DNA of 64,000 nt, from contig CBDBKE010000002.1 in assembly GCA_965206645.1 (NCBI GenBank), positions 416,001 to 480,000 of the forward strand, given 5' to 3'. Made by a program: the position numbers and the translations under genes. Positions 20,200 to 63,673 of the stretch are shown piece by piece. Position 1 is the stretch's first letter. Each line of letters starts with the position of its first letter. Under the pieces are notes generated by a model, which saw only the letters and a list, made by a program, of their open reading frames with translations, was not told where the DNA came from and did not search any database. Origin of the DNA: Terriglobia bacterium. Lineage in GTDB: Bacteria > Acidobacteriota > Terriglobia > JAJPHL01 > JAPKYU01.

Positions 20200-20398
20200 A
20201 CTTGGATGTATAACGCCCTTATCGGAAACTGACCTACTACCCTAGCGGGCGTAGAGGGTCAGTTTCCGGTAAGCCGACTATACGGCCAAGTGAAACCGGG
20301 ATTGATAAACGCTAGGCCCTTGTGGGGACCTATCCGACATCGCTGTTGTAAAAGAGGGACGGTCCTTGGAAGGCAGCGGGGCCACGTTGCGCCTAGCC
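20200..20398 (+). repeat. Modular recombination-site-like repeat, copy 1 (site F - spacer S1 - inverted site R - module M)
   Basis: ACTTGGATGTATAACGCCCTTATCGGAAACT (20200-20230), 30-bp spacer, AGTTTCCGGTAAGCCGACTATACGGCCAAGT (20261-20291); homologous to the copies at 25217, 27865, 61930 and 63524. Confidence 0.85.
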
Positions 20399-20584
20399 CC
20401 CTCATGACACACCACTAGCGCGCCGATCGGCAGCTCGCGGTTCAATGGAAGGATCGCTCGGGGAACACGTTTCGACGTGCAGGCCGACTTCTCTTTCAGT
20501 TCTTCGCTGATCTTACTGGTGCAAGAAATAAGCGTTGTAGTTGTAGCACCGGCGTAGCACCGACAGCCTTTCTGCCAGTAAGAG

Positions 20585-20660
20585 TGGTGAGCACGGCAGG
20601 AGTCGAACCTGCAACCTGAGGATTAAGAGTCCCCTGCTCTGCCAGCTGAGCTACGTGCCC
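20585..20660 (-). tRNA. tRNA-Lys(CTT)
   Basis: Reverse complement GGGCACGTAGCTCAGCTGGCAGAGCAGGGGACTCTTAATCCTCAGGTTGCAGGTTCGACTCCTGCCGTGCTCACCA. Confidence 0.96.
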
Positions 20661-20678
20661 TTCGTCGTTCCTAACATC

Positions 20679-20878
20679 TTACATCAATAATACAATTTGT
20701 TCTGCACGTTCTAGCCCTGCGGGAATCGGCTCGAGAATGCTGGTGTCAGTTTTGGTGTCAGTTGGACCCTCAGGTTTGCCCGCCTGGATAGCCCGATTAA
20801 TCTCCGCCAACCGCTCCACGGCTGCCAGTTGGTAAGTGGGAGTGAGGTGAGCGTACCGGCAGGTCATGGCGATGGTCT
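20679..20878 (-). pseudogene. Tyrosine integrase C-terminal remnant truncated by IS21
   Basis: KTIAMTCRYAHL (catalytic Tyr box) then LAAVERL; arm-type direct repeat ACTGACACCAAAACTGACACCA; ends 19 bp before the tRNA-Lys 5' end. Confidence 0.75.
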
Positions 20879-21014
20879 TGTTATGAACGCCGGAGCAATA
20901 ATAGACCAGGGAGCGCCGCGCAAGCGGCGGTTTCTGGCGGTGCAAAATTAGACCAGCGCAGTTCGATTCCATCAAACATTGTGATTCTGATGTGTTTTGT
21001 GAAACACCGGAGGT

Positions 21015-22514
21015 GTGCACACAGTGGAACTCTATGCGCGTGTTCGACGAGCAGTTCAGGCTGAGGGGATCAGTGAACGGGAGGCGGCGCGGCAGTTCGG
21101 GCTAGCCCGCGAGACGGTCCGCAAGATGCTGCGGTACTCGATCCCTCCGGGCTATCGGCGGCAGCAGCCGGCGCGGCGGCCGAAGCTGGATGCCTGGGTG
21201 GGGATCATCGACCAGATCCTGGAGCAAGATAAGGCCCAGAGCAAGAAGCAACGCCACACGGCCAAGCGGGTTTTTGAGCGGCTGCGGGAGGAGCACGGAT
21301 TCCCGGGCGGCTACACCATCGTGAAGGACTACGTGCGGCTGCGGAAGCTGAGCCAGCGGGAGATGTTCGTGCCGCTGGAGCATCCACCGGGGGAGGCCCA
21401 GGCCGACTTTGGCGAAGCGCAAGTGGTGATCGGCGGGGTGGAGCGCAAGGCGCACTATTTCGTGATGGAGCTGCCGCAATCGGACGACTGCTTCGTGATG
21501 GCGTTTCCGGCTGAGACGACCGAAGCGTTCTTAGAAGGGCACAACCAGGCGTTCGGCTACTTCGGCGGAGTGCCTCGCACGATCCTGTACGACAACACCA
21601 AGCTGGCGGTGAGGCAGATCCTGGGTGACGGAACACGGAACAAGACGCGGGCGTTCTCCGAACTGCAGAGTCACTACCTGTTTGCGGAGAAGTTCGGACG
21701 ACCGGGCAAGGGCAATGACAAAGGGAAAGTGGAAGGACTAGTGGGTTACGTGCGGCGGAACTTCCTGGTGCCGGTGCCGCGGTGTGCCAGCTGGGAGGAG
21801 TTGCACGCGAAGCTGCGGGAACAGTGCACCCGGCGGCGAGAGCGGCGTCTGCGAGGACATCAAGAGACGATCGGCGAGCGGTTCGCGAAGGATCAACAGA
21901 GGCTGCTGCCCCTGCCGGCGACGCCCTATGAGGCCTGCGACAAACGGACCACACGGGTGACGTCACTGTCGCTGGTGCGGTATCGATCCAACGACTATTC
22001 GGTGCCGGTGGCTTGGGGGCACCGGGAGGTGCTGGTGAAGGGATTCGTCGAGGAAGTGGTGATCTGTGCAGCGAGCGAAGTGATCGCACGCCATGTCCGG
22101 AGCTAGGAACGGGAAGAGATGATCTTCGATCCGTTGCACTATCTGGCGCTGCTGGAGCAGAAGCCGAACGCGTTGAACCAGGCCGCCCCCCTGGCCGGCT
22201 GGGAGTTGCCGGAAGGCTTCGCGCAACTGCGGCGGCTGATGGAGGCGCGGTTAGGCAAGAAGGGCAAGCGGGAGTATGTGCAGGTCCTGCGACGGCTGGA
22301 GACGTTCCGTTGGACGGAAGTGTCGCTGGCCGTCGAGGACGCCTTGCGGCTGGGGGCGATCTGGTCTGACGCGGTCAAGCATCTGCTGCTGGGCCGGATC
22401 GAGCAGCGGCCGGCGCGGCTGGACCTGGAGCACTATCCGCACCTGCCGGCAACGCAGGTGGCCACCACAGCCGCCGCCGACTATCTGACCCTGCTCCGGG
22501 AAGGAGTCTGCTGA
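21015..22514 (+). pseudogene. istA: IS21 transposase IstA, in-frame TAG at 22104-22106
   Basis: EAQADFG, LYDNTK, GNDKGKVE; frame continues RS*EREEMIFDPLHYL. Confidence 0.88.
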
Positions 22515-23278
22515 TGGACACGCCCCAGGTGTTGCTGGAACACCATCTGAAGGCCCTGCAATTACCCACCTTTTTGCGTGAGTACGACAAGGTGGCGCAG
22601 CAGTGCGCTGCCGAGGGCGTGGACTTCCCGCGCTACCTGCTGCGGTTGACGGAGCTGGAGCTGCTGGACCGGGAACGGCGCGCCACCGAGCGGCGCATTC
22701 ACCAAGCCAGGTTCGACGTGGTGAAGAGCCTCGACAGTTTCGATTTCCTGGCCCTTCCGTCGCTGAATAAGGCCTTGGTGCTCGAGCTGGCCCGAGGCGA
22801 GTTCATCGAACGCAAGGAGAACATCCTGGCTTTAGGGAACTCGGGCACGGGAAAAACCCACATTGCGTTGGCGCTGGGACTGGCCGCCTGTCAGAAAGGG
22901 TTCCGGGTCCGGTTCACTACGGCGGCCTCCCTGGCGCATGAGCTGATCGAGGCCAAGGACGAGCGGCGCCTGATGCGGTTCCAGAAGATGCTCTCCAGTT
23001 TCGAGCTGTTGATCATTGACGAGCTGGGTTTCGTGCCGCTATCCAAGACTGGGGCGGAGTTGCTGTTTGAGGTCTTCAGCCGGCGCTACGAACGCAGCGC
23101 CACCGTGGTGACCAGCAACCTGCCGTTCAACGAATGGACGGAGGCCTTCGGATCGGAGCGGCTGACCGGAGCCCTGCTGGATCGTCTCACCCACCATGTC
23201 CACATCCTGGAGATGAACGGGGAAAGTTGCCGGCTCAAGGACAGCAAACGAAGGCGTTCCGGAAAGCCTCGCGCCTGA
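22514..23278 (+). CDS. istB: IS21 helper ATPase IstB
   Basis: Walker A GNSGTGKTH, Walker B LLIIDELG, TSNLPF, ALLDRLTHH. Confidence 0.95.
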   Translation: MDTPQVLLEHHLKALQLPTFLREYDKVAQQCAAEGVDFPRYLLRLTELELLDRERRATERRIHQARFDVVKSLDSFDFLALPSLNKALVLELARGEFIERKENILALGNSGTGKTHIALALGLAACQKGFRVRFTTAASLAHELIEAKDERRLMRFQKMLSSFELLIIDELGFVPLSKTGAELLFEVFSRRYERSATVVTSNLPFNEWTEAFGSERLTGALLDRLTHHVHILEMNGESCRLKDSKRRRSGKPRA

Positions 23279-23468
23279 TCTCACCCAATACTGGGCGACG
23301 AGTTGCGAGGGCGGCTTCCACTCCGGCCTAACCGCGCCGCCCTGCGGGCGTCGCAGGCCTCCGCTCCAACCGCCCCCGCAACTCCCTCTCAAATCAAAGC
23401 TTCCACCACCCCTGAACTGGTCTACTTTCTCTCCGCCGGAGTGGTCTAGTTTTACTCCGCCCTTGACA

Positions 23469-24194
23469 ACCGGGCTGGCCCTCGATAATTTCGCGGATAA
23501 TTGCGCAGCGAAAAGCCCCTCCACATCGACGAACGTTAAACGCCCCTTCCTGCGCTCGCTCTACAAGATCATCAACGACCGCAATATCCCCTTGGCTCTT
23601 CTTTATGATTTCCTCCTGGATGGACTGCCGGAACCCCGCTATTTTCTCGTAGGTCTCCAGGGCATCGTTTCCAGAAAAAGTTGTAGCCAGCTTCGCAAGA
23701 GCAGAAACTTTGGCGGGTCCCTCGGATGTGTTGATTCTTTCTTGCAACTGGGTCGGAAGTGAAAGAAGCTGAATGTACTTTCTCACGGTAGATGTTGACC
23801 AAGCCGTCTCCTCAGCCGCCCGTTCGTATGAACCGTAGCGATCATAGAGGGCCTTGAGCGCTCGCGCTTTGTCGAGTGGATGCATATCGGCTCTGTGTAC
23901 ATTTCCAACTAGGGACAGGGCAAGTGCATCAGCATCGTCAATATCGTCCCTGACCAAACAGGGCAACGGATCAAGCCCGACCCGCTGACATGCAAGCAGC
24001 CTTCGCTGGCCGACCAGAACCTCGTACCGGCCATCGGAACACGGGCGGACAATTGGCGGAGACAAAAGTCCTTTCTGGCGAATGCTTGCAGCAAGTTCCA
24101 TGATGCCCGAGTCTTCCTGCCCTGCATGGATATCTTTGCGTGCGTTTGACTCGGAAACGAACAGGCTCTTTAGGGGAATGTTCAGTTGTTGCAT
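23469..24194 (-). pseudogene. ParB/Srx N-terminal domain protein, C-terminus cut by IS21
   Basis: LAASIRQKGLLSPPIVR, YEVLVGQRRLLA, then an HTH-like segment STSTVRKYIQLL. Confidence 0.8.
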
Positions 24195-24217
24195 TCCAGT
24201 ATCGCAGACCCAAATTC

Positions 24218-24244
24218 GGACTATTGTCCGTAGGACTAAAGTCC
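24218..24244. promoter_or_regulatory. C-box-like tandem operator GGACTATTGTCC-GTA-GGACTAAAGTCC
   Basis: Two GACT..(A/T)GTC palindromes just upstream of the HTH gene, as for restriction-modification controller proteins. Confidence 0.7.
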
Positions 24245-24266
24245 ATACCGTACCACCATTTCCCTG

Positions 24267-24554
24267 TTGGCACAATCAAAGAGCAGACATATCCAGCCAC
24301 GTTCCGGTCCAGAGAAGGCGTTTGGCGAAGCGCTTCGGCAAGCCCGCCATGAACGAAGATTTTCCCAAGAGCAGTTGGGATTTGAGACTGGGTTCGACCG
24401 GACTTATATCAGCTTATTGGAACGCGGCCTGCAAAGCCCAACTATCAGAACTGTGGTGAGGCTTGCGGCCGTGTTGAAGGTAGCACCCTCCGACCTAATC
24501 AGACGTATGGAAATGCTTATGTCACCGCGGTCCCGAGAGCGCACGCGCCCGTGA
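24267..24554 (+). CDS. XRE-family HTH regulator (C-protein-like)
   Basis: FGEALRQAR...SQEQLGFETGFDRTYISLLERGLQSPTIRTVVRLA. Confidence 0.88.
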   Translation: MAQSKSRHIQPRSGPEKAFGEALRQARHERRFSQEQLGFETGFDRTYISLLERGLQSPTIRTVVRLAAVLKVAPSDLIRRMEMLMSPRSRERTRP

Positions 24555-24816
24555 CGGGTGGCGCTCCTCGGGGTGGCGGGGGTGTAGCACTTTGCCCCTT
24601 CGTATAGCCTACCCCGTCAATGCGGCAACCTAGCCGGTCGCGCCCGGTGGTCTCCGCCCGCCGCACTGGTGGGGTAGCTCGCCCACTTTTCGGTGCTGAA
24701 AGCCTGCAAGGTGTTTGTGGGATCGGCTTTTATTAACTCAATTGAGTAGAACCCGCGAGCTGGGAGCTGCCTGCGTTCGTTCCCGCGTTTATCGTCGGCG
24801 CTATACTAGGGGGTGT

Positions 24817-25131
24817 TTAAGCAGGGGCTCTGGGCTCGCCAAGGGCCGCCATGTGTTGCTCCCACACCCGGCGCCGTTGCTCCCGGCGCTGAAGGACGAA
24901 ATCCTTCGCTTTCTCAAAGCCCAGAAAGTCATGGCGCTCTTTTAGCCGGTTGCAGGTTCGACAGGCTGCTACCAAATTGCTAGTCTCCTTTGTTCTTCCC
25001 TCGGCGCGGGGAACCACAAAGTCCACCGTCATCATCAAGGCATTATCGAAACCGGCGGTTCCGTCTAAACCGCAATAGTGACAGCGAAAACGGTCCCGCA
25101 TCAGGATTGCGAGGCCCTCTTCCTCCGTCAA
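24817..25131 (-). CDS. HNH endonuclease-fold protein (catalytic His replaced by Phe)
   Basis: RDRFRCHYCG, TVDFVVPRAEG, NLVAACRTCNRLK. Confidence 0.8.
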   Translation of the reverse strand: MTEEEGLAILMRDRFRCHYCGLDGTAGFDNALMMTVDFVVPRAEGRTKETSNLVAACRTCNRLKERHDFLGFEKAKDFVLQRREQRRRVWEQHMAALGEPRAPA

Positions 25132-25216
25132 CGGTGATTCCAGCGAACCAGGACCGGATCTGCTAAGCTATTGAAAGCATTGTCGCGGAGAGGTGTCCGA
25201 GTGGCTGAAGGAGCGC

Positions 25217-25560
25217 GCTTGGATGTATAACGCCCTTATCGGAAACTGACCCACTACCCTGGCGGGCGTAGAGAGTCACTTGTCCGGTTTGCCGACTATA
25301 CGTCCAAGTGACCGCCATCGTCAGGGGAGGAGCCCAAGGCGCTGCGATAGTTTCCGCGTCGGCGAGCACTCGGGAGTTGGCAGCTGGACCGGAAAGAACC
25401 GGGGGGTTAGGGGCAATCTACCCGGCGTTGTTGGTGACAAGGCGGTGTATCTCGTGCCGCTTGGACTCTACTATTGCGGAAGGCGGAAGACCACCGGTGC
25501 GCCTAGCCGCGTCGCCGCGCTGACTTGCCTGGGGGCGGGCGGTAAGATGGCCGCACAGAG
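25217..25560 (+). repeat. Modular repeat copy 2 (F - S1 - R - S2 - degenerate R - tail with promoter)
   Basis: F at 25217-25247, R at 25278-25309, AGTTTCCG at 25349; CTGACT-N17-TAAGAT at 25520-25548. Confidence 0.85.
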
Positions 25561-25623
25561 GGGGCTTTTTCGTGGTTGACGTAGGCTTTCGGGTGAAGGG
25601 GAAGCTCAAAATCGAAATTCCGG
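25561..25623 (+). mobile_element. Orphan IS1380 right end
   Basis: GGTTGAC...GCTTTCGGGTGAAGGGGAAGCTCAAAATCGAAATTCCGG closely matches 18063-18129. Confidence 0.8.
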
Positions 25624-25758
25624 TCCCATGCGCTTGAGCCCTCAGCGCCGCTGGCGTACAATCATGAGCCGTGCGAACTTTGCAATCGACAAGCCCTGCT
25701 GAAATAGCAACTGAGTTGCCTCCTACTCGTCGGGCGGGACACACTTCACCGAGCAACT

Positions 25759-27645
25759 ATGCTTGATCTAATCATCATACTCGCGTTTATCATATACAGT
25801 ATAAGTAATGGGTTTCATAACAGATCTAAGGCTTCTCGCAATCTAGAAGAATATTTTCTAGCGGGTCGGTCAATTAAGGGATGGCGTGCTGGCTTTAGCC
25901 TGGCAGCCACCCAGTTTGCTGCCGATACACCGCTGTTAGTCACAGGACTCATCGCAACCGGCGGAATTTTCATGCTGTGGCGACTGTGGATCTACGGCCT
26001 GGGCTTCTTCATGATCGGCTTTCTCCTGGGACGGGCATGGCGTCGAGCCCGCGTGCTCACCGATGCGGAGCTCACCGAGCTTCGGTATAGTGGTTGCGGC
26101 GTCCTAATGTTACGCGGCCTGAAAGCCATTTATTACGGCACGGTCATGAATTGTACGATAATGGCGATGGTATTGGTTGCCGCCACGCGTATCTGCGAGG
26201 TTTTTCTCCCCTGGCATAAGTGGTTACCTGGTGCTTTCTACCAGTGGATGTACAACCTAGTTGAATGGGTAGGAATTCGTTTGTCGTCCGGCGCTACAGG
26301 GCTCGAACCGTTTGTGGCGACAACCAACAACTTATTCAGTATTCTTCTGATTATCGGATTTACGGCCCTCTATTCCACTACAGGTGGATTACGATCCGTC
26401 ATTGCCACCGACACCGTTCAGTTCAGCATCGCGATGATTGGCACGCTGATCTATGCAATCGTTGTGGTTATAAACTCTGGAGGTATCGGTCAGATCGTTC
26501 AGGGCCTTGTCCGGCATTATGGTGCAACCCAAGCGAGCCAATTCCTTTCGTTCAGCCCGACCACATGGGAAGCATTCATGCCGTTCCTAGTGGTTGTCAG
26601 CCTGCAGTGGTTTTTCGAGCGCAACAGCGATGGTACTGGTTACTTTGCCCAACGAATGATGTCCTGCAGAAGTGATCGGGATGCTCGAATGGCCGCTTTT
26701 ATCTTCACGTGGTTGCAAATTTTGCTGCGAAGTCTCTTCTGGTTGGTGATCGGCGTGGGTTTGTTGGTGATCTATCCATTCGATCCGGCTTCTGTCGGCG
26801 GAGAAACCTTTGTGGCCAGCAGAGAGCTGCTGTTTGCGACAGGAATAAGAGATCTCCTGCCTGCAGGCATCAAGGGCATTATGTTGACCGGGTTGTTGGC
26901 TGCGCTAGCCTCGACCATCGATACTCACTTGACATGGGGAGCCAGTTACTGGAGCAATGACTTATACCTGCGGATTGTGAATCGAGCATGGCTTAAACGA
27001 GAACCCTCCACCCGCGAACAGGTGCTTGTCGCTCGACTGTCGAATGTCGTGATCCTCGTCATTGCCTTGGTCATTATGACAAACCTGGAATCCATCCAGA
27101 CGGCCTGGTATATAACCCTCTTATTTGGAGCGGGAACGGGCGCTGTATTGATACTAAGATGGCTTTGGGAACGAATTAATCTCTACTCTGAGATCTCGGC
27201 CATTGGCGCGTCGCTGGTCTTGGCGCCGATCATCCTTTTTACGGTAGAAGCTGAATGGTTACGGTTATTGCTCATGTCATCGATGTCGACAGCGGTCGTT
27301 ATCACAGTAACTCTGCTTACGCGACCAACGGCGGAAGGCGTTCTGGTGGAATTTTATAAACGTGTGGATCCGCCCGGTTTCTGGAAGCAAACTGCCGAAA
27401 CAGTAGGTGTAGATGCACGGCGTCCGATTGAGGCATTGAAAAAGGGAGCCTATCTAACCGTCGTCACGAGTTTATCGCTCTATTTGCTGCTGGTTGGCTT
27501 CGGTAAGCTCATCTTGCCTAATCCAGCCAGTTCAGTGGTCTATTCATGGTTTTACATCGTGTTGGGAGTTGCGAGTGTAACGTTGTGGTGGCGAAGACTG
27601 TTTCCACCGAAAACTTCTGCGGATTCTGGTGGCGAACAAAGTTAA
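25759..27645 (+). CDS. Sodium:solute symporter family protein (PutP-like)
   Basis: EYFLAGRS, ATQFAADTPL, GGLRSVIATD, YFAQRMMS, LAALASTID; many TM helices; visibly lower GC than the core genes. Confidence 0.92.
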   Translation: MLDLIIILAFIIYSISNGFHNRSKASRNLEEYFLAGRSIKGWRAGFSLAATQFAADTPLLVTGLIATGGIFMLWRLWIYGLGFFMIGFLLGRAWRRARVLTDAELTELRYSGCGVLMLRGLKAIYYGTVMNCTIMAMVLVAATRICEVFLPWHKWLPGAFYQWMYNLVEWVGIRLSSGATGLEPFVATTNNLFSILLIIGFTALYSTTGGLRSVIATDTVQFSIAMIGTLIYAIVVVINSGGIGQIVQGLVRHYGATQASQFLSFSPTTWEAFMPFLVVVSLQWFFERNSDGTGYFAQRMMSCRSDRDARMAAFIFTWLQILLRSLFWLVIGVGLLVIYPFDPASVGGETFVASRELLFATGIRDLLPAGIKGIMLTGLLAALASTIDTHLTWGASYWSNDLYLRIVNRAWLKREPSTREQVLVARLSNVVILVIALVIMTNLESIQTAWYITLLFGAGTGAVLILRWLWERINLYSEISAIGASLVLAPIILFTVEAEWLRLLLMSSMSTAVVITVTLLTRPTAEGVLVEFYKRVDPPGFWKQTAETVGVDARRPIEALKKGAYLTVVTSLSLYLLLVGFGKLILPNPASSVVYSWFYIVLGVASVTLWWRRLFPPKTSADSGGEQS

Positions 27646-27647
27646 AG

Positions 27648-27770
27648 TGTTCTTAGATGGAGATCTCCGGACACCGGGGTAGTCCGGTGGCAGGAGATTT
27701 TAGTTTAGGCCGCGATCTCCTGCGGCATATGATTGACTTCCTCCCAGAAGGCCTGACAGGGAGTGCGTCG
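27648..27770 (-). mobile_element. IS481-like right-end remnant
   Basis: Reverse strand RTPCQAFWEEVNHMPQEIAA* followed by a terminus ending ...ATCTAAGAACA (TGT end on the + strand). Confidence 0.55.
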
Positions 27771-27864
27771 CCTATTAGGCCATCTCATGAGTGCAGGCCG
27801 GGTGCTGTCGGTTCGGGCGGGTCCTGACACCTGCAGCTCTCGGAGCTGCTTCCTGAAAGCATAA

Positions 27865-28210
27865 GTAAACCCTAGCCGACAAGGCGGGACCTATCTACTC
27901 TCAGCTATTAAGTGACGCTGCCTCCAGGTAGGCACTTGTCCGGTAAGCCGACTATACGTCCAAGTGACCGCCGACGTCAGCGGAGGAGCCGCAAGGCGCT
28001 GGGGTACTTTCCGAGAAGCCGACTATTCGCCCAGCTGAACCCGGGATTGGTAAACACTAGCCCGTTTGTGGGGACCTATCCGGCATTGCTCGTGGCAAGG
28101 CAGTGTATCTCGTGCCGCTTGGACTTCCGCCAGTACAGCAGCGGGGACCACGCAACTGGCCGAGTTGCCGGGTTGACTTGCCTGCGGGTGGGGCCTAGGA
28201 TGGTTGTCCA
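27865..28210 (+). repeat. Modular repeat copy 3 (M/X - R - S2 - R - M - tail with promoter)
   Basis: R at 27934-27965 and 28006-28036; motif TAAACnCTAGCC..GGGACCTATC twice; TTGACT-N17-TAGGAT at 28173-28201. Confidence 0.85.
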
Positions 28211-28310
28211 AGAGTAGGTTCCTTTGTCATGATTGACAACACGACATCACTAGTAACTGGAACTGGATGGAAATCGGATTGACCCTCATCTGTGCAAAGG
28301 AGGTTGGGCA

Positions 28311-30017
28311 ATGATCTCTCGGCGCGCATCGTTTTCGCCTGATCTGCGTCTTGCATTTGCCCTCTGCTCGACACTGGTCGTCTGCGGGCTTGGAGTGGCG
28401 GATGCGGGCGGCCAGAAGGATCCGGCGCTCGATGCGAAATCGACGGTTGTGGAAGGCCAGATTGCACCGCGGTTGCAGAATCTGGGGGACCACAAGCATA
28501 GCGTCACGACAAATTCGCCTCGGACACAGCTCTTCTTCAACCAGGGGCTCAACCTCGCCTTCGGCTTCAACCACCGGGAGGCCGGTCGTTCGTTCCGCGA
28601 GGCTGCGCGGCTCGACCCGGACTGCGCCATGGCCTATTGGGGACAAGCGCTTGTCCTGGGTCCGAACATCAACCTACCGATGCCGCCCAAGGCGGAACCG
28701 GAAGCCTACAAGCTGATCCACAAAGCCGTTATGCTCAAAGCGAAGGTCTCGGAGAAGGAGCGAGCTTACATTGACGCGTTGGCAAAGCGGTACTCGAATG
28801 AAGAAAAGCCCGATCGGAAAGCGCTCGACCGCGCTTATGCCGAAGCTATGCGTGATCTTTCCGAGCGCTATCCCGATGATCTGGACGTTGCCACGCTCTA
28901 CGCCGAAGCGGTCATGGATCTGAGGCCATGGAACTATTGGACCCGGGACATGCAACCCTATCCCGAGACGGTTGAGATCCTTCGAGTTCTCGAGTCCGTC
29001 CTGCAGCATAACGCGAACCACCCGGGCGCCATTCACTACTACATCCACACTGTCGAGTTCGCCCGCCCTGAATTGGCCGAAGCCGGAGCTGACCGTTTGG
29101 GCCAGCTCACGCCGGGGGCCGGCCACCTAGTGCATATGCCGTCCCACATCTACAGGAGGGTAGGTCGCTATACCGACGCATCCAAGAGCAACGAACTGGC
29201 CATCCTCGCCGATGAAGATTACATCACCCAGTGCCGCGCCCAAGGGATCTACCCGCTGGCCTACTACCCGCACAACATCCACTTCCTGTGGGACTCGGCC
29301 ACGATGGAGGGGCGAAGTCGGGTAGCGGTTGCAGCCGCACGCAAGGTGGCCTCAAGTATTCCCACCGACGCTTGGCGTGAGATCCCCCTGCTGCACCAGT
29401 TCCTTGTGACTCCCTTGCACGCCCTCACTCGCTTCGGGAAGTGAGAGGAGGTTTTGCAGGAACCGCGGCCGCCTGCCGCCAGTCCGTTCTGGACCGGCAT
29501 CTGGCACTACTCTCGCGGCTTGGCTTTCATCGCCACCAACCGGCTGGAGGAGGCTTCCCAGGAACTACAGGCTCTCCAGGCGATTGCCAATGACAAGTCC
29601 CTAAAGGGCCTGCGGGTGACCTTCTCCGCCAACGGGGCAACCCCCATCCTGGTCATCGCGACTGAGGCTCTGGCGGGAGAGTTAGCCGCCAAGCAGGGTG
29701 ACTTTGAGAAAGCGATTACTCATCTCCACCGGGGTGTCTTGCTCGAAGACAGCCTCATCTACACCGAGCCCCCGGATTGGCACATTCCCGTTCGCCAATC
29801 GTTGGGCGCCGTGCTGCTCGAGGCCGGGCGACCGTTGGAAGCAGAAACGATCTACTGGCAAGACTTGAAGTGGAACCGAGAGAATGGCTGGGCTCTTTAC
29901 GGCCTAATGAAGAGCCTCGAAGCACAAGGAAAGACGGAGCAAGCTGGGGAAATTGAGAAGAGGTTCCGAAAAGCGTGGGCAATGGCGGACGTAAGACTCA
30001 CTGCATCGCGTTTCTGA
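28311..30017 (+). pseudogene. Secreted TPR-like protein, in-frame TGA at 29442-29444
   Basis: FFNQGLNLAFGFNHREA, HPGAIHYYIH, GHLVHMPSHIY, RFGK*EEVL (W expected), NGWALYGL; frame continues to 30017. Confidence 0.85.
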
Positions 30018-32147: not shown

Positions 32148-33492
32148 CTTCGATCCGTTGCACTATCTGGCGCTGCTGGAGCAGAAGCCGAACGCGTTGA
32201 ACCAGGCCGCCCCCCCGGCCGGCTGGGAGTTGCCGGAAGGCTTCGCGCAACTGCGGCGGCTGATGGAGGCGCGGTTAGGCAAGAAGGGCAAGCGGGAGTA
32301 TGTGCAGGTCCTGCGACGGCTGGAGACGTTCCGTTGGACGGAAGTGTCGCTGGCCGTCGAGGACGCCTTGCGGCTGGGGGCGATCTGGTCTGACGCGGTC
32401 AAGCATCTGCTGCTGGGCCGGATCGAGCAGCGGCCGGCGCGGCTGGACCTGGAGCACTATCCGCACCTGCCGGCAACGCAGGTGGCCACCACAGCCGCCG
32501 CCGACTATCTGACCCTGCTCCGGGAAGGAGTCTGCTGATGGACACGCCCCAGGTGTTGCTGGAACACCATCTGAAGGCCCTGCAATTACCCACCTTTTTG
32601 CGTGAGTACGACAAGGTGGCGCAGCAGTGCGCTGCCGAGGGCGTGGACTTCCCGCGCTACCTGCTGCGGTTGACGGAGCTGGAGCTGCTGGACCGGGAAC
32701 GGCGCGCCACCGAGCGGCGCATTCACCAAGCCAGGTTCGACGTGGTGAAGAGCCTCGACAGTTTCGATTTCCTGGCCCTTCCGTCGCTGAATAAGGCCTT
32801 GGTGCTCGAGCTGGCCCGAGGCGAGTTCATCGAACGCAAGGAGAACATCCTGGCTTTAGGGAACTCGGGCACGGGAAAAACCCACATTGCGTTGGCGCTG
32901 GGACTGGCCGCCTGTCAGAAAGGGTTCCGGGTCCGGTTCACTACGGCGGCCTCCCTGGCGCATGAGCTGATCGAGGCCAAGGACGAGCGGCGCCTGATGC
33001 GGTTCCAGAAGATGCTCTCCAGTTTCGAGCTGTTGATCATTGACGAGCTGGGTTTCGTGCCGCTATCCAAGACTGGGGCGGAGTTGCTGTTTGAGGTCTT
33101 CAGCCGGCGCTACGAACGCAGCGCCACCGTGGTGCCCAGCAACCTGCCGTTCAACGAATGGACGGAGGCCTTCGGATCGGAGCGGCTGACCGGAGCCCTG
33201 CTGGATCGTCTCACCCACCATGTCCACATCCTGGAGATGAACGGGGAAAGTTACCGGCTCAAGGACAGCAAACGAAGGCGTTCCGGAAAGCCTCGCGCCT
33301 GATCTCACCCAATACTGGGCGACGAGTTGCGAGGGCGGCTTCCACTCCGGCCTAACCGCGCCGCCCTGCGGGCGTCGCAGGCCTCCGCTCCAACCGCCCC
33401 CGCAACTCCCTCTCAAATCAAAGCTTCCACCACCCCTGAACTGGTCTACTTTCTCTCCGCCGGAGTGGTCTAGTTTTACTCCGCCCTTGACA
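32148..33492 (+). mobile_element. IS21 copy 2, left-truncated (istA 3' end, istB, right end)
   Basis: Near-identical to 22124-23468. Confidence 0.92.
32538..33302 (+). CDS. istB: IstB ATPase copy 2 (TSNLPF changed to PSNLPF)
   Basis: 254 aa, two substitutions relative to the 22514 copy. Confidence 0.9.
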   Translation: MDTPQVLLEHHLKALQLPTFLREYDKVAQQCAAEGVDFPRYLLRLTELELLDRERRATERRIHQARFDVVKSLDSFDFLALPSLNKALVLELARGEFIERKENILALGNSGTGKTHIALALGLAACQKGFRVRFTTAASLAHELIEAKDERRLMRFQKMLSSFELLIIDELGFVPLSKTGAELLFEVFSRRYERSATVVPSNLPFNEWTEAFGSERLTGALLDRLTHHVHILEMNGESYRLKDSKRRRSGKPRA

Positions 33493-45932: not shown

Positions 45933-45994
45933 TGACCAGACCGATTTTTTGTACCAACCGTAGTGAGAGTTCACATCGCAGCCTGGGGCTGTGA
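45933..45994 (-). mobile_element. IS3 right-end stub (same element as 11022)
   Basis: TGACCAGACCGATTTTTTGTACCAACCGTAGTGAGAG... Confidence 0.9.
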
Positions 45995-46863
45995 GACCGC
46001 ATTCTCCGCCACGCTCTGGCGAGTGCAGCCACTCGACTTCCGCCACTCATAACGGCCCTGCGTCCTAATACGCCGGAGATGGGTATCACGCATCGCACGC
46101 CACGGAGGCGGATGAGAGTCTCGGCTGCATCGTGCATTGCGTCGCGGCAAGATCGTCACGATAGCGTCGTGCTGGAGCACGGCCTCGTAGCAGGAACCCG
46201 TGTCGTAGGCCCGGTCTGCGGAGACTTGCCCGATCGAACCAGGAGTCTTAGACAGCAACGAAGAGAGCCTTCGGGCGTCGTGGACGTTGCTCGCAGTCAG
46301 GTCCATCGCAACGATCTCTTTCGTCGTCTCATCGACGCCTAGGTGGAGCTTTCGCCATGTCCTACGGCGGAGGGTTCGGTGTTTTCTGATGTGCCACTCA
46401 CCGGCTCCGTAGATCTTCAGGCCCGTCGAATCGATGACGACATGTCGTGGTCGATCCGTGGGCCGCACACTCAGTCGGACGTCGACGGCGCTTTGCCTTC
46501 GGCTCACCGTGCTGTAGTTGGGCACTGGGAGGTCGAGAGCCATGAGCGCCACGATGGATTGAAGGAACCCTTGAGTGGTCCGTAGGTTGAGGTGAAACAC
46601 CGAATTCAGGACCAGCGCACATTGGATCGCCGCATCTGCGTAGACCTTGGGCCGGCCTCGCCCTTCGAAGGGTCCTGGATGACGCCAGGCAGCGACTGCC
46701 TCCGTGTCGAACCACAGTGTCAGCTGCCTACGTTTCACCAGAGCCCGGTTGTACTCCGGCCAGTTGCGAACCTTATATCGGAAGGTGTAGTCGCTTTTGC
46801 CCATCCCCTAGCCTATCAGGAGGGAGAGCGTTGGGGATGGAGTCAGATTTCTGCAACAACGCC
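45991..46863 (-). mobile_element. IS5 family (IS903 group), 3'-truncated; transposase ORF 45971-46804
   Basis: Left IR GGCGTTGTTGCAGAAATC; VRNWPEYNRALVKR, IDSTGLKIYGAGEW, WRKLHLGVD, ADRAYD. Confidence 0.9.
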
Positions 46864-51386: not shown

Positions 51387-51400
51387 GAGGTAGGGTGGGT

Positions 51401-53815: not shown

Positions 53816-54589
53816 CTCAAGGGTTCCTTCAATCCATCGTGGCGCTCATGGCTCTCGACCTCCCAGTGCCCAACTACAGCACGGTGAGCCGAAGGCAAAG
53901 CGCCGTCGACGTCCGACTGAGTGTAGGGCCCACGGATCGACCACGACATGTCGTCATCGATTCGACGGGCCTGAAGATCTACGGAGCCGGTGAGTGGCAC
54001 ATCAGAAAACACCGAACCCTCCGCCGTAGGACATGGCGAAAGCTCCACCTAGGCGTCGATGAGACGACGAAAGAGATCGTTGCGATGGACCTGACTGCGA
54101 GCAACGTCCACGACGCCCGAAGGCTCTCTTCGTTGCTGTCTAAGACTCCTGGTTCGATCGGGCAAGTCTCCGCAGACCGGGCCTACGACACGGGTTCCTG
54201 CTACGAGGCCGTGCTCCAGCACGACGCTATCGTGACGATCTTGCCGCGACGCAATGCACGATGCAGCCGAGACTCTCATCCGCCTCCGTGGCGTGCGATG
54301 CGTGATACCCATCTCCGGCGTATTAGGACGCAGGGCCGTTATGAGTGGCGGAAGTCGAGTGGCTGCACTCGCCAGAGCGTGGCGGAGAATGCGGTCTCAC
54401 GGTACAAGGCGATACTCGGGGTAAGCCTCTCGGCCCGCACGGTCAAGAACCAAAAAGTCGAAGCCGCGATCAAGTGCGCTGTGCTGAACCGGATGGCGGA
54501 GCTTGGAATGCCACGATCGGAGCGCGTGTACTGAGGCGGATGAGCTTCTCGGCCCAGTTCGCCGCGAGCGCGAATTACGCAACAACGCC
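53816..54589 (+). mobile_element. IS5 (IS903 group) copy 2, 5'-truncated; transposase C-terminus to 54534
   Basis: Near-identical to the 45991-46574 region; right IR GAATTACGCAACAACGCC. Confidence 0.9.
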
Positions 54590-57089: not shown

Positions 57090-57401
57090 CGAAGACATAG
57101 ATCGGGCCGCTTCTCCAGCGCTCGTCCTCGTGGAAGGCTCACCCATCCCGGCCGCCGAAGGGTCCTTCCGGGCCTCTGCAAAGCCCACTTCCTGGCCGTT
57201 CCGAATCGCTTGACAGTCGTAGGCGCATTGAACGAACGATTTGACGTCCTCCGTTGTGCGCACGGCACGGGCGGTTTCTGACGGAGCGATCCGCGCAAGA
57301 CAAAGGTTCAGCGGCGCCGAAAGCTCAGCGGCGCCGAAAGCCTGCGGCGCGGCGCACACTATGACTGATAGAATCAGAAATGGAGACAGGCTACACTTCA
57401 T
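57090..57401 (-). pseudogene. Third Cache-domain paralog, N-terminal fragment
   Basis: MKCSLSPFLILSV...AVRTTEDVKSFVQCAYD...EVGFAEARK, fragmented. Confidence 0.65.
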
Positions 57402-58019
57402 TATAACTAAGAATGCTGGCACAGACTCACATAAAGAGTCAAGCATAAAGGCGGTTCTTCAAAAAGCTAGCAATATGAGGAAGTTCCATATGTTTCGAGT
57501 TCCGACTGAACCCAGCTCGTGCTAGCTTGGCAGCCCGATCATTTGCCGCTACCACCTGTCCATTGCGAATTGATATGTTGAGCGATTCTACCCGTGACCG
57601 CTGCCCCAGTGAGGCGAGTGCACACTGGCGGAGTACCCTCGGTAGCAGCGAAACAATCAGATCAGACAACCGCTCCGCGTTGACAAACTCAAACAGCGAA
57701 TGGTTTCGTAGGAAGTGCCCGCCTGCCGATGTCCGCCGGTTACACAGGGAGCACCAGTCTTTGGAGAATCAGGCAGTCATTGGGGTGTGATAGAGGCCTC
57801 TGCAGTGGCGTTGCCATCCATAGGAATGGAGCCTGGCGACTGGTCGTGGTATAGGCGTGACTGGATCAGGCGTTCTCCCCTCCAGTCCAGTGTGCGAGCG
57901 ATACGCATTGAAATATGTCCTGAAATCGAGCAGCTTGTTCTCCAGGTCCGCCGGCGTCCAGAACAACGTGCGATCCAAATACTCGCGTCGAATCGTGCCG
58001 ATCAACCGTTCCACAAAGG

Positions 58020-59299: not shown

Positions 59300-60444
59300 A
59301 AGGGATGGGACAGGGGAACATAGGGGACGGTTTTGATTTCGATTACCTCCAGGATCCGCAGATTGGCTTGCCACTGCCCAAACCGATACAGGGGATCATG
59401 GTCGGAGCTGAGGTAGTTGGGCATACAGGGTTGCCATCGAATGGCGCGGTTGAACATGCGGCAAAGTGCCACGCCATTGACGGTTCCGGCGTGGACGCCG
59501 AACCCAATGATCCGGCGGGTGTATTGATCCATGACGACCAAGACCCAGTGGGTCCGCAACGTGGCCGATTCGCACCGGAACAGATCTATACTCCAGAGGC
59601 TGTCCTTCATGTGGCCAATGAAGGTCAGCCAGGATGGACCACCGGAGTCCTTTTTCGGCCGATAGTGGCTGGCGAGAATCCTTCGAACAACGTCTTTGTC
59701 GATGGGGATGTCGAAAGCCAAGGCAATCTACTGAGCGATTCGCGGGCAGCCCCAGGTGGGATTGCGCTGCTTCATCTGGACAACAGCGTCGATGAGTTCT
59801 TTGTTGGGTCCGTTTGGTCCGGGCTTACGCCGGTGCTTGGATGAAAAGAGCAGGCAATATTTTCGGTTCCTCAGAGCCCGGTGGAGGCCCAAAAGAGTCG
59901 AAGGCTTCAGCACGATTGCTGAGCGGATCAGGCGGGCGGGGCGGATGAGGAGAGCACACAGGCCGGCGGCGAGGCGATCTGAAGTGCGTAGATTGGGAGA
60001 TCGCTGTCGCGAACGATTGAGGATCAGGAGTTGTTGCTTGTCAAGAACGGACTCGGCGATCACAGAGCGAATGCCACCCGGACCCAAGAGCCGGGCAAGA
60101 GTAGCCATGACATGGACAACAAGGATAACGAGATTGCGCATCTCAGCATCTTAGCAAGAACCGCTAAACCCAGGAATTAGGCCGCAAACTAGCAATTCGC
60201 CAGGGACAGGTTAGCTGAAGGTTGCCACTGCGTTTTCAAAAAGGAAATCCGGGTTAAGCCAGAAAACGCCTTATTTTCATGCGATTTTCCAGACACTGCT
60301 CCGTTCCCTTACATCATTGATGGGTTTCTCTGCCTGCCGAAAGCGACGCAGGTTATGTCAGAGAACGTCATAGAGGCAGCACTGCATCAGCCAGTTGTTA
60401 CCGTTGAGGGCGAGCGGGCCGCCATTATCCAATTTTCTACAAAT

Positions 60445-61176
60445 TCAAACCTCGTCGAGGGCCTTGTCTCCCCAAGGCCGCCCCTCAGTAACCAATTTAT
60501 ACATTTTGTAGGTGCACCAGGATTCCGTTGCTGCAAACGCTTCATCCAGAGTGTAGGATTTGCCGCTTCTCTCCATGGTTTCTTCTTCCAGCCACTTGTC
60601 CAAATGGTTCTTGCAGCAAAAGAAATTGGTGTTGACGCATACGATGAGATAGTAGGGCGCATTAACCGGCAATCTGTTTTCGATCCAAATGCATATGTCA
60701 TCCGGAGAACGATCCACGATTTGGGTTCCATTTCCCCCGTAGCCTATGGAGATTTCCCGGTCACAATACCTGCAGCATGATTTCACTCTGATGTCCTTGC
60801 CGAAAGTGGGCGGAAGTGTCAGGGCATCCATCGCGCAAGGAGAATAGGAAATACGTCCTCCATCCGGCCTGATCAGCTTGTGTATCGTAGGTATCCCTGC
60901 CACCGGATAGAAAGCGATAACATTCTTGAAGAAAGGATCTCTATAAATGCCATATACGCTTTCAAATGCATCCAGTATTTCCTCGACTGCCGCTACGGGA
61001 AGGTCGGTGTTTTGCGCAACCTCCCCAGGAGATGATCTCCTGCCTTGTTCAAAGAGCGTATTGCTCACGTAGAGGTAGACCTTTCGCATCTCTGGAGAAA
61101 TCATTGAAGGGTCTGGAGGGGGACAACTCTCTGCTTCTTCCATTTTCTTTGCATCCGCATCGTTCTTTTCCGTCAT
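60445..61176 (-). CDS. merB: Organomercurial lyase (MerB)-like protein
   Basis: N-terminal winged helix; YSPCAMDAL (Cys/Asp pair like WCALD), SCCRYC, VCVNTNFFCC; GGAGG RBS before the ATG at 61176. Confidence 0.7.
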   Translation of the reverse strand: MTEKNDADAKKMEEAESCPPPDPSMISPEMRKVYLYVSNTLFEQGRRSSPGEVAQNTDLPVAAVEEILDAFESVYGIYRDPFFKNVIAFYPVAGIPTIHKLIRPDGGRISYSPCAMDALTLPPTFGKDIRVKSCCRYCDREISIGYGGNGTQIVDRSPDDICIWIENRLPVNAPYYLIVCVNTNFFCCKNHLDKWLEEETMERSGKSYTLDEAFAATESWCTYKMYKLVTEGRPWGDKALDEV

Positions 61177-61219
61177 TGCTCGATCCTCCCATGACATTTC
61201 GTCCGAAAGTAATTGTTGG

Positions 61220-61609
61220 GCGTTCCGGCGGTTGAAAGTGTACATCCATTTGCATCCTACCGAGCACAATTTCTCCTCCGAGAGGGCCATCGGCCCCCAG
61301 CCGCCCTTTTCGCGTCCCCGAAACCATCGGCTCGGCTTCCAGAACCGGCTTTTTCAGACACCTCTCCATTCCTGGGGAATAATCGGTGTCGTTTTCTTGT
61401 GTGCCACAGCTTAAGCTATCCCGACGGAAGCGGCAGCCCATCGATCCGCCCCAGCATACTGGCAAACAGCCGTCGGGTGAGATGGCTCTCCGCCAAGAAC
61501 AACCAATAGTAGCGGGCATGCTTGACCAACCTTCCACCCGTCTTCACCAGCCGTTGCTGGAGGCTCGTCAAGGACCAGTTTCCGAGCCTCTGGGGCAATA
61601 CCAAGCGCC
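61220..61609 (-). mobile_element. IS1380 3' fragment
   Basis: RRLVLPQRLGNWSLTSLQQRLVKTGGRLVKHARYYW, homologous to 17710-17905; left boundary approximate. Confidence 0.85.
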
Positions 61610-61728
61610 GGTATTGTCAAGTTGAGGCTGAGGGCTGTTTTTGATGCTTAGCATGGTGGGTTCGAGACGGGCTGGAGCCCAATATCTTGGGGGTCGATCG
61701 ACGAGCTTTTCGTCAACTTGACAATGCC
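61610..61728. mobile_element. 119-bp MITE with IS6-like IRs
   Basis: GGTATTGTCAAGTTGA...TCAACTTGACAATGCC. Confidence 0.75.
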
Positions 61729-61900
61729 TTTCGGTGTGCGCTCCAACCAGGTCCCTAGGGCCTTAAAGTTGACGGCGATGATCTCATTCCGGTCCGGATC
61801 GACGACGAAGATCCCATCATTGGATTTCCCAAAGATCTTGTGAAATGGCTCTTGGCTTCTGCCCGGAGCTTCTCCAGTCCGTTCTCGCTGTTTCTTTAAC
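61729..61900 (-). pseudogene. PAS-domain sensor fragment
   Basis: SQEPFHKIFGKSNDGIFVVDPDRNEIIAVNFKA. Confidence 0.45.
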
Positions 61901-61929
61901 GATTCGAGCGCGGATACTCTCTCGCGACA

Positions 61930-62070
61930 CCGGATAGATCCCCACTAACGGGCTAGTGTTTATCAATCCCGGTTTCACTTGGGCGTGTAGTCGTCTTGCC
62001 GGAAACTTACCCTCTACGCCCGCCAGGGTAGTGGGTCAGTTTCAGGGAAGGGCATTATACATCCAAGTGG
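61930..62070 (-). repeat. Modular repeat copy 4 (F - S1 - R - M), inverted relative to copy 1
   Basis: Sites at 62038-62068 and 61977-62007 with the same 30-bp S1 spacer. Confidence 0.85.
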
Positions 62071-62136
62071 CGACAGGGATGACTTGATACCATTTTTGCG
62101 AAGTCGGGCCCGAGAACGACTTCGAGCCGTCTATGG

Positions 62137-62790
62137 TCAGGCCTCTTCGCCGAGGAACCTGGTCACCACCTGCACCAACTCCTGCGGTTTGTCCATGTGT
62201 ACGTAGTGGCCGGACTTTTCGATTACCTCCAGCTTGGCGTTTGGCAGCTTTTCCGCAATCTCATACGCCAGCTTGACGCTGATGAAGCGATCATACTTGC
62301 CCCATACCACCAGCACGGGTGTTTGAAGCTCGTGTGCGCGCGGCTCAAAGTACTTCTGGCCAATGTGGAAGTTTTGGAAGTACGACAGAAACGCCTCCTG
62401 GTTGCTTTTACTCATAGCGTCGGCCAAGAATTCCTGGCGCACCTCAGCCGGGATGGAGTGCCCCCGGTAAAATCCTTTGAAGTACGTAATTTGGGCTGTG
62501 AGACGCGGAAACCACCACACCAGGGCCTTGGCGAGGATCGAGCCCTTCTTGGCAAAACTCTTAAGCTCCCAGGAGGAGTACTGTGGTCGCGGAAACGGAA
62601 TGCCGTCCGTCACCACCAGCTTAGAGACGCGGCTTGGGTGCTCCAGGCCGACCAGTAGCGCCGGGAGGAGGGCAATGTCTGTGGCCATCAAGATTGTTTG
62701 AGTGATGTGAAAGGAGTCCATGAAGTCTACAATCACCTCCGCAAAGCGGAGTGACGTGTAGTCCTTGCGGGGGTTGGGGTTCTTGCTGCG
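62137..62790 (-). pseudogene. Alpha/beta hydrolase, N-terminally truncated
   Basis: ATDIA nucleophile elbow, RVSKLVV, PVLVVWGKYD, SGHYVHMDKP; the oxyanion-hole N-terminus is missing. Confidence 0.75.
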
Positions 62791-62839
62791 CTTTTTCTGA
62801 TGGCATACGGCGCCAACGGTAGCGGAAAACTGATCCGAC

Positions 62840-63371
62840 GCGGCCGGGGATGGAAACAATTCGGACTGGGTTCTTTCGTAGTGGGGTATTCGATCCTGGC
62901 CGGTGTTAACTCTCGTGCTTCCTCCGAAAAGGAGTCAGTGTTCTCGAACTTACGCTAGGCACATGATGAACGACATTTTGGAGGCCGAAAACAAATTCCA
63001 GTCCGCGGCAACACTGGACACGAACGGAAATGGCGTGGGCGAAATACGGCACGCTCGAGCAACTTCGACAGGCCAGACTCATTCGGTATGACTACGGTTC
63101 GGATAGGTATAATCGTCGCTACATCGTGGTCTTGACGGGAGAGCCAGAAAATGATGAGAAAAGGTTCTTTCTGTATGCGACACCGAAGAGCTATTTCTCC
63201 CGCTCAAGCTGGGAATTCGTGCCCTTCTACTCGCTCTACTGGAGTCTGCACAATATGAGTTCCCGATGTCCGGCTGCAGCTACCTTAGCTGCCACGGAGA
63301 CAGGCGAAATCAAGGTTCGGGACCTGGGTGAGTCGAGACCGGTAACACGGGAAGAAGTGGAGAGTTGGTAA
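62840..63371 (+). pseudogene. Pilin-like/secreted protein remnant, frameshifted near 63044
   Basis: ILEAENKFQSAATLDTNGNGVGE|YGTLEQL...FFLYATP...ATETGEIKVRD. Confidence 0.4.
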
Positions 63372-63523
63372 TACTCAATCCGCAAAGTTGGAAACTTAGC
63401 CGGCGACGCACGGCGCCGCACACCACCGTGGGCAATCTTCACGCCAACCTGGGAGGTCATTGAAAATGGGCCGTAAGTTCTTGATGCCAGGTAGCTTCGT
63501 TGGACTAGTTGGATTGACCAACT

Positions 63524-63673
63524 CAGAAACTGTCGCAGCGCCTTGCGGCTCCTCGTCTAACGTCAGCGGTCACTTGGCCGTATAGTCGGCTTACCGCACA
63601 AGTGCCTACCTTGAGGCAGCGTCACTTTAATAGCTGAGAGTAGATAGGCCCCGCCTAGTCGGGTAGGGTTTAC
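63524..63673 (-). repeat. Modular repeat copy 5 (M/X - R - S2 - degenerate R), inverted relative to copy 3
   Basis: Site ACTTGGCCGTATAGTCGGCTTACCGCACAAGT at 63572-63603; flanks match 27865-28010. Confidence 0.85.

Follow-up and report, generated by a model that had tools for sequence, protein, structure and literature searches.

A 64,000-nucleotide stretch of the genome of a Terriglobia bacterium (the window; C2:416001-480000, in an assembly of 4.41 Mb, four contigs and 61% G+C) contains several copies of a site of about 33 nt, here called R, the conserved core of a modular family of extragenic repeats. The family is dispersed between the genes of this genome and recurs patchily in other Acidobacteriota; its sites fall into two classes, A and B, which are found one of each in every inverted pair surveyed, and elsewhere in the phylum R lies beside genes of one clade of Xer-like tyrosine recombinases. 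No published description of the family was found in full-text literature searches or in Rfam. The explanation that we tentatively favour, at a little under an even chance, is that the repeats are decayed non-autonomous copies of a tyrosine-recombinase element, which now persist as mosaic intergenic repeats; that a recombinase of this clade acted on R, that the paired sites descend from a full element and how they moved are what we infer from sequence comparison. In the labels used below, G stands for a genome (G000 being that of the window), L with a number for a locus stretch and C for a contig.

A sequence-only reading of the window had described nine sites of about 31 nt, two further degenerate ones and a five-copy array found only in accessory DNA. 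Scanning a degenerate 31-nt pattern at up to three mismatches, with shuffled sequences as the expectation (0.00), recovered six of the nine, at 20200(-), 20261(+), 25217(-), 27935(+), 61977(-) and 62038(+), and the three weaker ones at 25279, 28008 and 63572 were found at up to five mismatches or by profile. The degenerate copies near 25349 and 63506 are visible by eye, and by eye only. R reads CAGTTTCCGRTAAG-centre-TATACRKCCAAGTG and, as read from the sequence, consists of two arms of about 12-13 bp with inner TAA/TTA or TAA/CTA around a centre of 5-6 nt; its ends are CA(G/C)TT(T/G) and CCAAGTG. It looks like a simple tyrosine-recombinase site, similar to dif in plan without being canonical.

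The extent of the family was larger than had been supposed. At up to five mismatches the pattern occurs 54 times, with matches on each of the four contigs. Three whole copies used as BLAST queries gave 87 merged loci, and iterated profiles of seven modules (the sites, S1, S2, M, L and T among them), run over all four contigs, gave 180 matches at 89 loci, again on every contig, with about 70 copies of R. Thus, the 'five-copy array' is a local sample of a dispersed family, whose full-length copies are 86-90% alike. Placement against the 3,977 genes of a home-made gene caller (83% coding) showed 88 of the 89 loci to be extragenic; a single one of the 89 had over 50% of its length within a predicted gene, where random placement gives 0.84. 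Confinement to accessory DNA did not hold up either, as a sigma-70 gene (regions 1.2-4, primary-type) has elements on both sides and the genes of an RNA recognition motif (RRM) protein and of a Ser/Thr kinase are also flanked. The genes between sites are ordinary and diverse, and the proposed capture of cargo found no support.

Alignment of 68 site-plus-M (R-M) units from this genome and two congeners replaced the single site type in two orientations of the earlier reading by two classes, which separate cleanly by centre, linker and variant of the module M:

Class A: centre GGGCGT, linker GGGCKGCGTGGCAGCATMGG, M variant GCTAACCGACTAG, then YGCCGAATCTGAG.
Class B: centre GCCGAC, linker AAACCGGGATTGA, M variant GCTAGCCCGTTAG, then often T.

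The basic unit is an inverted A'-spacer-B doublet, in which A' is the reverse of A and the CCG ends point inward. Because these ends face inward, the doublet is a foldback with central 5-6 nt that cannot pair: its arms pair, while the centres and linkers do not. In a survey of 121 loci from other genomes and from metagenomes we counted 205 R-like sites and 23 inverted doublets, defined as two R-like sites within 90 nt, and all 23 join A with B, CCG ends facing. The probability of all-hetero pairs by chance is 0.49^23 = 7e-8, or 1.6e-3 if only about nine independent spacer types are counted. The spacers measure 14-39 nt and are of at least eight kinds, with 15 of the 23 pairs in one 37-nt-spacer family, and S1 and L of this genome are additional to these, so that the A-with-B rule is old and general. 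Self-complementary spacers were not found as a rule, z being mostly about -1.

Outside this genome the distribution is patchy. All three congeners searched carry the family, with 24-45 matches listed for each; one other genus of the same family gave three weak matches, and five came from G017, which belongs to a different family of the class. A scan of one genome per species found the exact core in 42 stretches, of which 38 are titled Acidobacteriota of several classes, three 'uncultured bacterium' and one a Desulfobacterales metagenome-assembled genome, the last of which looks like a chance match. Metagenome contigs held at least 120 stretches with the core. Viral contigs held no exact core match, and a phage origin was rejected on this basis (plasmid collections not searched). 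In an even sample of 300 other Acidobacteriota genomes of at least 90% completeness, R at up to one mismatch was present in four, one of them with seven copies. That the core is near-identical across classes and yet present in about 1% of genomes suggests DNA that moves horizontally.

The link to a recombinase comes from other Acidobacteriota. In G126 (locus L233) an A' at 826-851(-) is followed by open reading frames (ORFs) of 85 and 80 aa, a 332-aa recombinase gene at 1501-2499 and a B-like site at 2537-2562(+), which is the geometry of a doublet with a 1.7-kb interior. The recombinase scores 112 bits with the XerC model and 102 bits with that of XerD, both far below the cut-offs, and 37.8 bits with the integron integrase model TIGR02249, whose cut-off is 265; neither small ORF matched a family, and the 85-aa product looks, by eye only, ribbon-helix-helix-like. 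When ORFs within 2.5 kb of R were clustered for the 121 loci, the neighbours included Ser/Thr kinases (9), IS110 transposases (5), a PF00589 cluster (4) and MacB/FtsX (4), none of which dominates. Three of the four PF00589 loci (L113, L135 and L160, from metagenomes) fall in one tyrosine-recombinase clade with the G126 protein, with 62-82% identity and an exact R 0.3-1.9 kb away. G126 is the one full candidate for an autonomous relative with the same ends, and four further genomes lend partial support. G325 and G327 have the recombinase 3' end and B in common, with 84% identity, and just past ..TATACNTCCA they part from G126; a B half-site stands 30 nt after a recombinase fragment in G322, and in G333 an A' abuts the recombinase start, with a second A' 1.3 kb downstream. 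In the phylum sample, 10 of the 300 genomes carry the recombinase, four carry R and two carry both (Fisher p 0.006).

In the genome of the window the linked clade is absent, the best match being a XerC/D-like gene product 34% identical. The window itself holds no tyrosine recombinase gene, and the 36 Phage_integrase matches of the genome all lie elsewhere. The suggestion that the sites are hubs for a tyrosine recombinase is partly backed, by the linked Xer-like clade elsewhere; it lacks both a clade member in this genome and a local cassette platform. A possible remnant is present in the congener G001 (L260 1537-2484; G001:C2:250934-251881), where the first ~62 residues of a 315-aa ORF are 69% identical to the N-terminus of the linked recombinase; the remainder is unrelated, so that it is either a gene fusion or a truncated relic. 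This remnant lies 1.2 kb from a truncated A', and a 346-aa ORF of no tested family lies between them.

Around R the family is built of reusable modules. S1, S2, M and the tail (T), which had been proposed from the sequence, were confirmed by sequence reading and a repeat finder, and the orders derived from the profiles are close to those first given; we add a module L. A full element has the order A' S1 B, and copy 1, M' A' S1 B M, is a 186-nt foldback; elsewhere the doublet is filled by L or by an unnamed stretch of about 31-33 nt, and S2 comes after a B, usually with another B next. The five copies in the window are as follows:

20150-20335 (+): copy 1, full foldback M' A' S1 B M, from profiles, repeat finder and folding.
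Parts of copy 1 (+), from sequence and profiles: M' (A-type) 20150-20176, linker, A' 20200-20230, S1 hairpin 20231-20260, B 20261-20291, linker, M (B-type) 20308-20335.
25218-25467 (+): copy 2, A' S1 B S2 ..T, from pattern and profiles.
Parts of copy 2 (+), from pattern and profiles: A' 25218-25247, S1, B 25279-25309 (a variant with a CACTTG 5' end), S2; then, from sequence and profiles, a degenerate site at about 25347 and T 25425-25467, which leads on to the symporter gene 25759-27645.
27865-28125 (+): copy 3, M L B S2 B M T, from sequence and profiles.
Parts of copy 3 (+), from profiles: M 27865-27895, L 27892-27932, B 27935-27965, S2, B 28008-28038, M 28050-28081, T 28083-28125.
28126-28210 (+): extension of T, ahead of the tetratricopeptide repeat (TPR) gene 28311-29444.
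61932-62068 (-): copy 4, A' S1 B M, with A' 62068-62038, S1, B 62007-61977 and M 61960-61932; 124 nt are 89% identical to copy 1, and it lies downstream of the hydrolase gene 62137-62859(-).
63534-63681 (-): copy 5, M L B S2 (profiles cover 63534-63646, plus M' to 63681), with M 63681-63650, L, B 63602-63572 and S2 63568-63534, and a degenerate site near 63520 after S2.

The T extension of copy 3 carries sigma-70-like hexamers, TTGACT at 28173-28178 and, 17 nt on, TAGGAT at 28196-28201. Thirteen T copies could be aligned genome-wide, and at least eight have a common extension of about 140 nt (28083-28210 and 25425-25560 in the window) that ends in TTGACT-17-TAGGAT-like hexamers, a ribosome-binding site and the starts of unrelated genes (the symporter, the TPR protein and two kinases). 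T looks like a portable promoter, a function that its motifs suggest. M also occurs on its own at five loci, in M'-33..44 nt-M palindromes that have a linker motif of their own, CCATCCAGGCAGAAC, in either orientation:

M'-M palindromes: C4:762658-762754, C4:1205225-1205321, C4:1928961-1929066, C4:2196797-2196892 and C2:518298-518401.

These palindromes are related to the doublet flanks and are not exact joins of them, so that they do not provide exact 'empty sites'.

Orthologous loci in relatives bear on how the modules have moved. Out of 71 element groups examined, 12 could be mapped onto this genome; in seven the modules are identical or almost so and occupy the corresponding position, with flanks 93-98% identical, and the other five show an extra S2+B unit, a replaced segment, a missing M, a missing block, or weak matches. 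The locus at C2:95573 differs from its counterpart in G001 by exactly one unit, an additional S2'+B' (71 nt) that stands between two direct B sites in this genome. At C2:100748 it lacks an A'-S1-B-S2 block that is found in G001 and G003, the deletion beginning exactly at the outer end of A', between CCCAC and TTGG; G001 differs downstream, after a degenerate site. One relative has at the locus compared a replaced segment, not an empty site. Beside copy 2, positions 25157-25223(+) are a 67-nt copy of 30 nt of upstream sequence and the 5' half (25187-25223, to the anticodon GGA) of tRNA-Ser(GGA), whose intact gene, at C2:675631-675720(-), gives a 67-nt local alignment to the duplicate. A CTTGGA common to both fuses this duplicate with copy 2, at the outer end of its A', and contigs in three runs with loose ends at 25223 continue as the intact tRNA-Ser. 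The duplicate may have been left behind when the anticodon loop took part in a recombination. The contexts of G126 and G327 likewise part at the outer end of B. According to these comparisons, modules on either side of R assort independently, so that the proposal that modules switch at the sites stands, with an S2+site unit between direct sites and three comparisons that break at the sites, at the outer end and not at the centre. As R itself is conserved, such comparisons cannot locate the crossover point within it. The joints between copies in metagenome contigs have sides of only 23-59 nt that come from other loci of the repeat family, and they are thus cross-mapping and not excision products. 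With copies about 10-14% diverged and seven of the 12 mapped groups at orthologous places, the sequences give no sign of current activity.

Here we propose that an ancestral small mobile element, bounded by A' and B and moved by an Xer-like 'simple' tyrosine recombinase, may have founded the family. The doublets would be non-autonomous derivatives of that element, similar to attC or to miniature inverted-repeat transposable elements (MITEs), and G126 might represent a distant relative in which the whole arrangement survives: A', the two small ORFs, the recombinase and then B. In the genome of the window the recombinase would have been lost, leaving R copies that are old, diverged, mostly fixed between genes and nested in M palindromes, with modules presumably reshuffled by recombination between R copies and T bringing promoter-like sequence to the next gene.

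Several observations weigh against this proposal. What connects the recombinase to R is their adjacency, which would also be expected if R were merely an integration target of such elements; both ends surround the recombinase at one locus only (G126), no B site was found in G333, and the upstream site of L135 is of class B and not A. Moreover, at 11 loci in 10 genomes whose homologues are 44-65% identical, G017 of the window's class included, no R or half-site lies within 1.5 kb. The recurrent breakpoints lie where R ends on its outer side instead of in its centre, which does not fit a simple central crossover, although this may only reflect homology within R that masks the actual point of exchange. 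About 70 R copies persist in the genus without the enzyme, and single orthologous copies decay: in the C2:95573 comparison, R has five differences in 32 nt against flanks that are about 93% identical. Finally, no clean empty site or target-site duplication was found at the replaced locus, among the M'-M palindromes or in the congeners of G126, in which only the repeats match and the flanks are not common. IS110 transposases also stand beside R, within 2.5 kb in five of the 121 loci (L028, L035, L049, L118 and L135), and in L049 the boundary of the IS110 insertion lies about 50 nt from R, inside the neighbouring module.

These points lead to an explanation that we consider unlikely, namely that the R doublets are preferred integration targets of the recombinase unit and of IS110, and not element ends, while the repeats spread by another route, similar to insertion sequence (IS) elements in repetitive extragenic palindromic (REP) sequences or phages in neisserial dRS3. 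It would agree with the IS110 neighbours, with the position of the G126 recombinase unit exactly where a doublet spacer would be and with the absence of R near the more distant homologues, and REPs are described as IS targets in PMC3733652. However, the recombinase 3' end and B travel together at 84% identity across genera and their contexts part only after B, which fits B as a part of the unit; the polarity of the upstream site is the same in G126, G333 and L135; and integration would account neither for the multiplication of the repeats nor for the A-with-B pairs. The R repeats may nevertheless be a preferred target of IS110. IS110 itself was rejected as the master element, as this genome has only a weak broken fragment and no intact IS110 transposase, and since it lies near R in only five of 121 loci we read these copies as guests.

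A variant of the proposed descent from a recombinase element, which we hold to be doubtful, is that the doublets are attC-like and are recombined, as folded single strands or as a duplex hetero-pair, by a non-integron Xer-like recombinase. Known attC and CTX-type attP sites have a folded geometry of two imperfectly complementary halves with two boxes each and an unpairable centre, and the R doublet has the same. As in attC, the loop is very variable (here from 14 nt to 1.7 kb), the candidate enzyme is an Xer-like tyrosine recombinase and module boundaries fall in the outer box, and the A-with-B rule recalls the unlike halves of attC as well as the Y/Z rule of BIMEs (bacterial interspersed mosaic elements). 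By contrast, the attC core boxes RYYYAAC ... GTTRRRY are not present in the R sequences, the linked recombinase is not an integron integrase, there is no attI/Pc platform, and the R sites are dispersed instead of stacked in one array and are conserved in sequence, not in structure alone. What the doublets have in common with integrons is therefore the folded geometry, and neither the boxes nor an IntI, attI or cassette array accompanies it.

The same foldback could act in RNA. A strong fold was predicted for copy 1 (-96.3 and -101.4 kcal/mol, z -6.6 and -7.2), and together with the strictly extragenic placement this would suit a 3' UTR terminator, an insulator, an mRNA stabiliser or a small RNA; a protein would then bind the conserved 5x5 internal loop, and T would serve the following gene as its promoter. 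In this genome the M-facing side of A units adjoins a gene 3' end in 8 of 11 cases, on one contig three doublets each follow co-oriented genes, pairing the class consensus by hand gives about six G-U-type pairs on the A'->B strand versus 1-3 A-C mismatches, and an RNA-library contig covers 25251-25592. This contig attests presence only, as neither strand nor transcript ends are shown by such contigs and DNA may be in RNA libraries. Moreover, the fold is equally good on either strand, the arms are conserved in their sequence and so leave no covariation to count, and B units follow no orientation rule here (11 same versus 9 opposite), while in the wider sample the rule is weak (3' side opposite in 18 of 26). 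Rfam at gathering scores found tRNAs only in the whole window, and at E up to 10 over 20000-28300 it added one chance Xist_exon1 match (26203-26283) outside the elements, so that no Rfam family matches them. Given that the patchy distribution and the near-identical cores across classes also fit mobile DNA better, we regard a role in RNA as rather improbable.

It is very improbable, in our view, that the host XerC and XerD act on R as on dif- or pdif-like sites and make the genes between inverted sites exchangeable. Canonical dif sites have two arms of about 11 bp around a centre of 6-8 bp and occur once per replicon near the terminus, and pdif sites bound the modules of plasmids. R resembles both in its arm-centre-arm plan with inner ATAA/TTAT-like arm ends, in the recurring B ... 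genes ... A' layouts that bracket genes with inverted sites of two kinds, as in the pdif modules of Acinetobacter plasmids, and in module content that changes at the sites; two XerC/D-like genes are present in this genome (C4:609221 and C2:61092). It differs in its 5-6-nt centre and 12-13-nt arms, in the fixed modules that accompany it, in a linked recombinase of a separate clade and in its number, with 54 pattern matches and 89 loci on four large contigs where dif has one site per replicon, and about 70 extragenic copies on chromosomal contigs, none at a GC-skew extreme (plasmid collections not searched). With a weak skew and unclosed contigs, the terminus could not be placed. A primary-type sigma factor is among the genes between sites, seven of the 12 mapped groups occupy the corresponding position in a congener with unchanged or almost unchanged modules, and R, found in four of 300 phylum genomes, does not track XerC/D if these are near-universal in the phylum. 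Given this patchy distribution, R does not look like a host site such as dif. A scan for ATAA-N6-TTAT gave 12 places, none of them R and none convincing as a canonical dif.

In appearance R is close to the BIME/REP and REPIN sequences of enterobacteria and Pseudomonas, which are also short extragenic imperfect palindromes in tens to hundreds of copies that form long foldback doublets, with two types always paired inverted and a small vocabulary of linkers in mosaic arrays. REP families are usually species-specific; the 33-nt core of R, unlike them, is near-identical across classes, yet is present in about 1% of sampled genomes. PMC2817692 and PMC3733652 describe BIMEs as imperfect palindromes of two types in alternating orientation with linker motifs, and the latter reports a GTAG or CGTC tetranucleotide at one end of the palindromes associated with RAYTs (REP-associated tyrosine transposases) and, in Acidobacteria, Y1 transposases flanked by long inverted repeats (PMC3733652). 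We find it scarcely credible, despite the BIME-like look, that R is a REP family which owes its spread to an HUH Y1 transposase of the RAYT kind. Neither a GTAG nor a CGTC tag stands at an R end, the gene linked to R encodes a tyrosine recombinase and not an HUH enzyme, the congeners G001 and G003 carry the family without any Y1_Tnp match, none of nine Y1 loci examined in three further genomes with R has a copy of it within ~1.5 kb, and the two Y1_Tnp genes of this genome are flanked by unrelated hairpin repeats of their own. The RAYT link was rejected, as Y1 genes were never flanked by R in the genomes checked. Beside one of the two Y1_Tnp genes (209 and 204 aa; G000 C4:709929-710513 and C4:115653-116486), a 110-130-nt repeat with at least 12 copies at 92-95% identity on all contigs forms a separate REP/RAYT-like family.

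Two further comparisons help to place the family. Neisserial intergenic mosaic elements (NIMEs) with dRS3 and Correia elements are mosaic intergenic blocks bounded by a short conserved inverted repeat; dRS3-type repeats are also landing sites for site-specific mobile elements, including ones with IS110-type enzymes, and some of these repeats carry promoters. They are unrelated in sequence and belong to another phylum, whereas R has the two-class rule and a linked Xer-like recombinase. With MITEs the R family has in common terminal inverted repeats, a short non-coding interior, many intergenic copies and a candidate full-length relative (G126). It is unlike them in that the candidate enzyme is a tyrosine recombinase instead of a DDE transposase and that the centres of its two ends are by rule different; no clean target-site duplication or empty site was found.

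The surroundings in the window include DDE and Mu-like transposases, IstB, ParB and HNH as mobile-gene neighbours of the elements. The window is rich in IS elements, with a DDE_Tnp_1_4 transposase and two copies of a Mu-like transposase with IstB (16577-17905, 21015-23278, 32148-33302). A 595-nt inverted pair of 99% identity (45981-46575 / 53816-54410) encloses 7.2 kb, an ORF with an alkylmercury lyase (MerB) domain at 60445-61290(-) lies between copy 4 and IS-like DNA, and a 43-nt direct repeat of 91% identity (18088-18130 and 25582-25624), the second copy just before the symporter gene, stands outside the module set.

Even without the recombinase link, R defines a well-delimited mosaic repeat family of Acidobacteriota, which accounts for a large share of the long structured intergenic regions in the genus and, in annotation, marks assembly breaks and the points of exchange between modules, the promoter-like one included. 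If the link is true, a simple Xer-like tyrosine recombinase, and not a DDE or HUH transposase, would have given rise to a non-autonomous repeat family in bacteria; this would widen the range of ways in which tyrosine recombinases shape genomes, with a two-class rule that recalls attC, and it would make available a compact recombinase whose site is defined and measures about 33 bp, in a phylum that has almost no genetic tools. Should the attC-like variant prove right, Acidobacteriota would possess an integron-independent tyrosine-recombinase system that spawns miniature non-coding derivatives, and the genes between B and A' could move as units.

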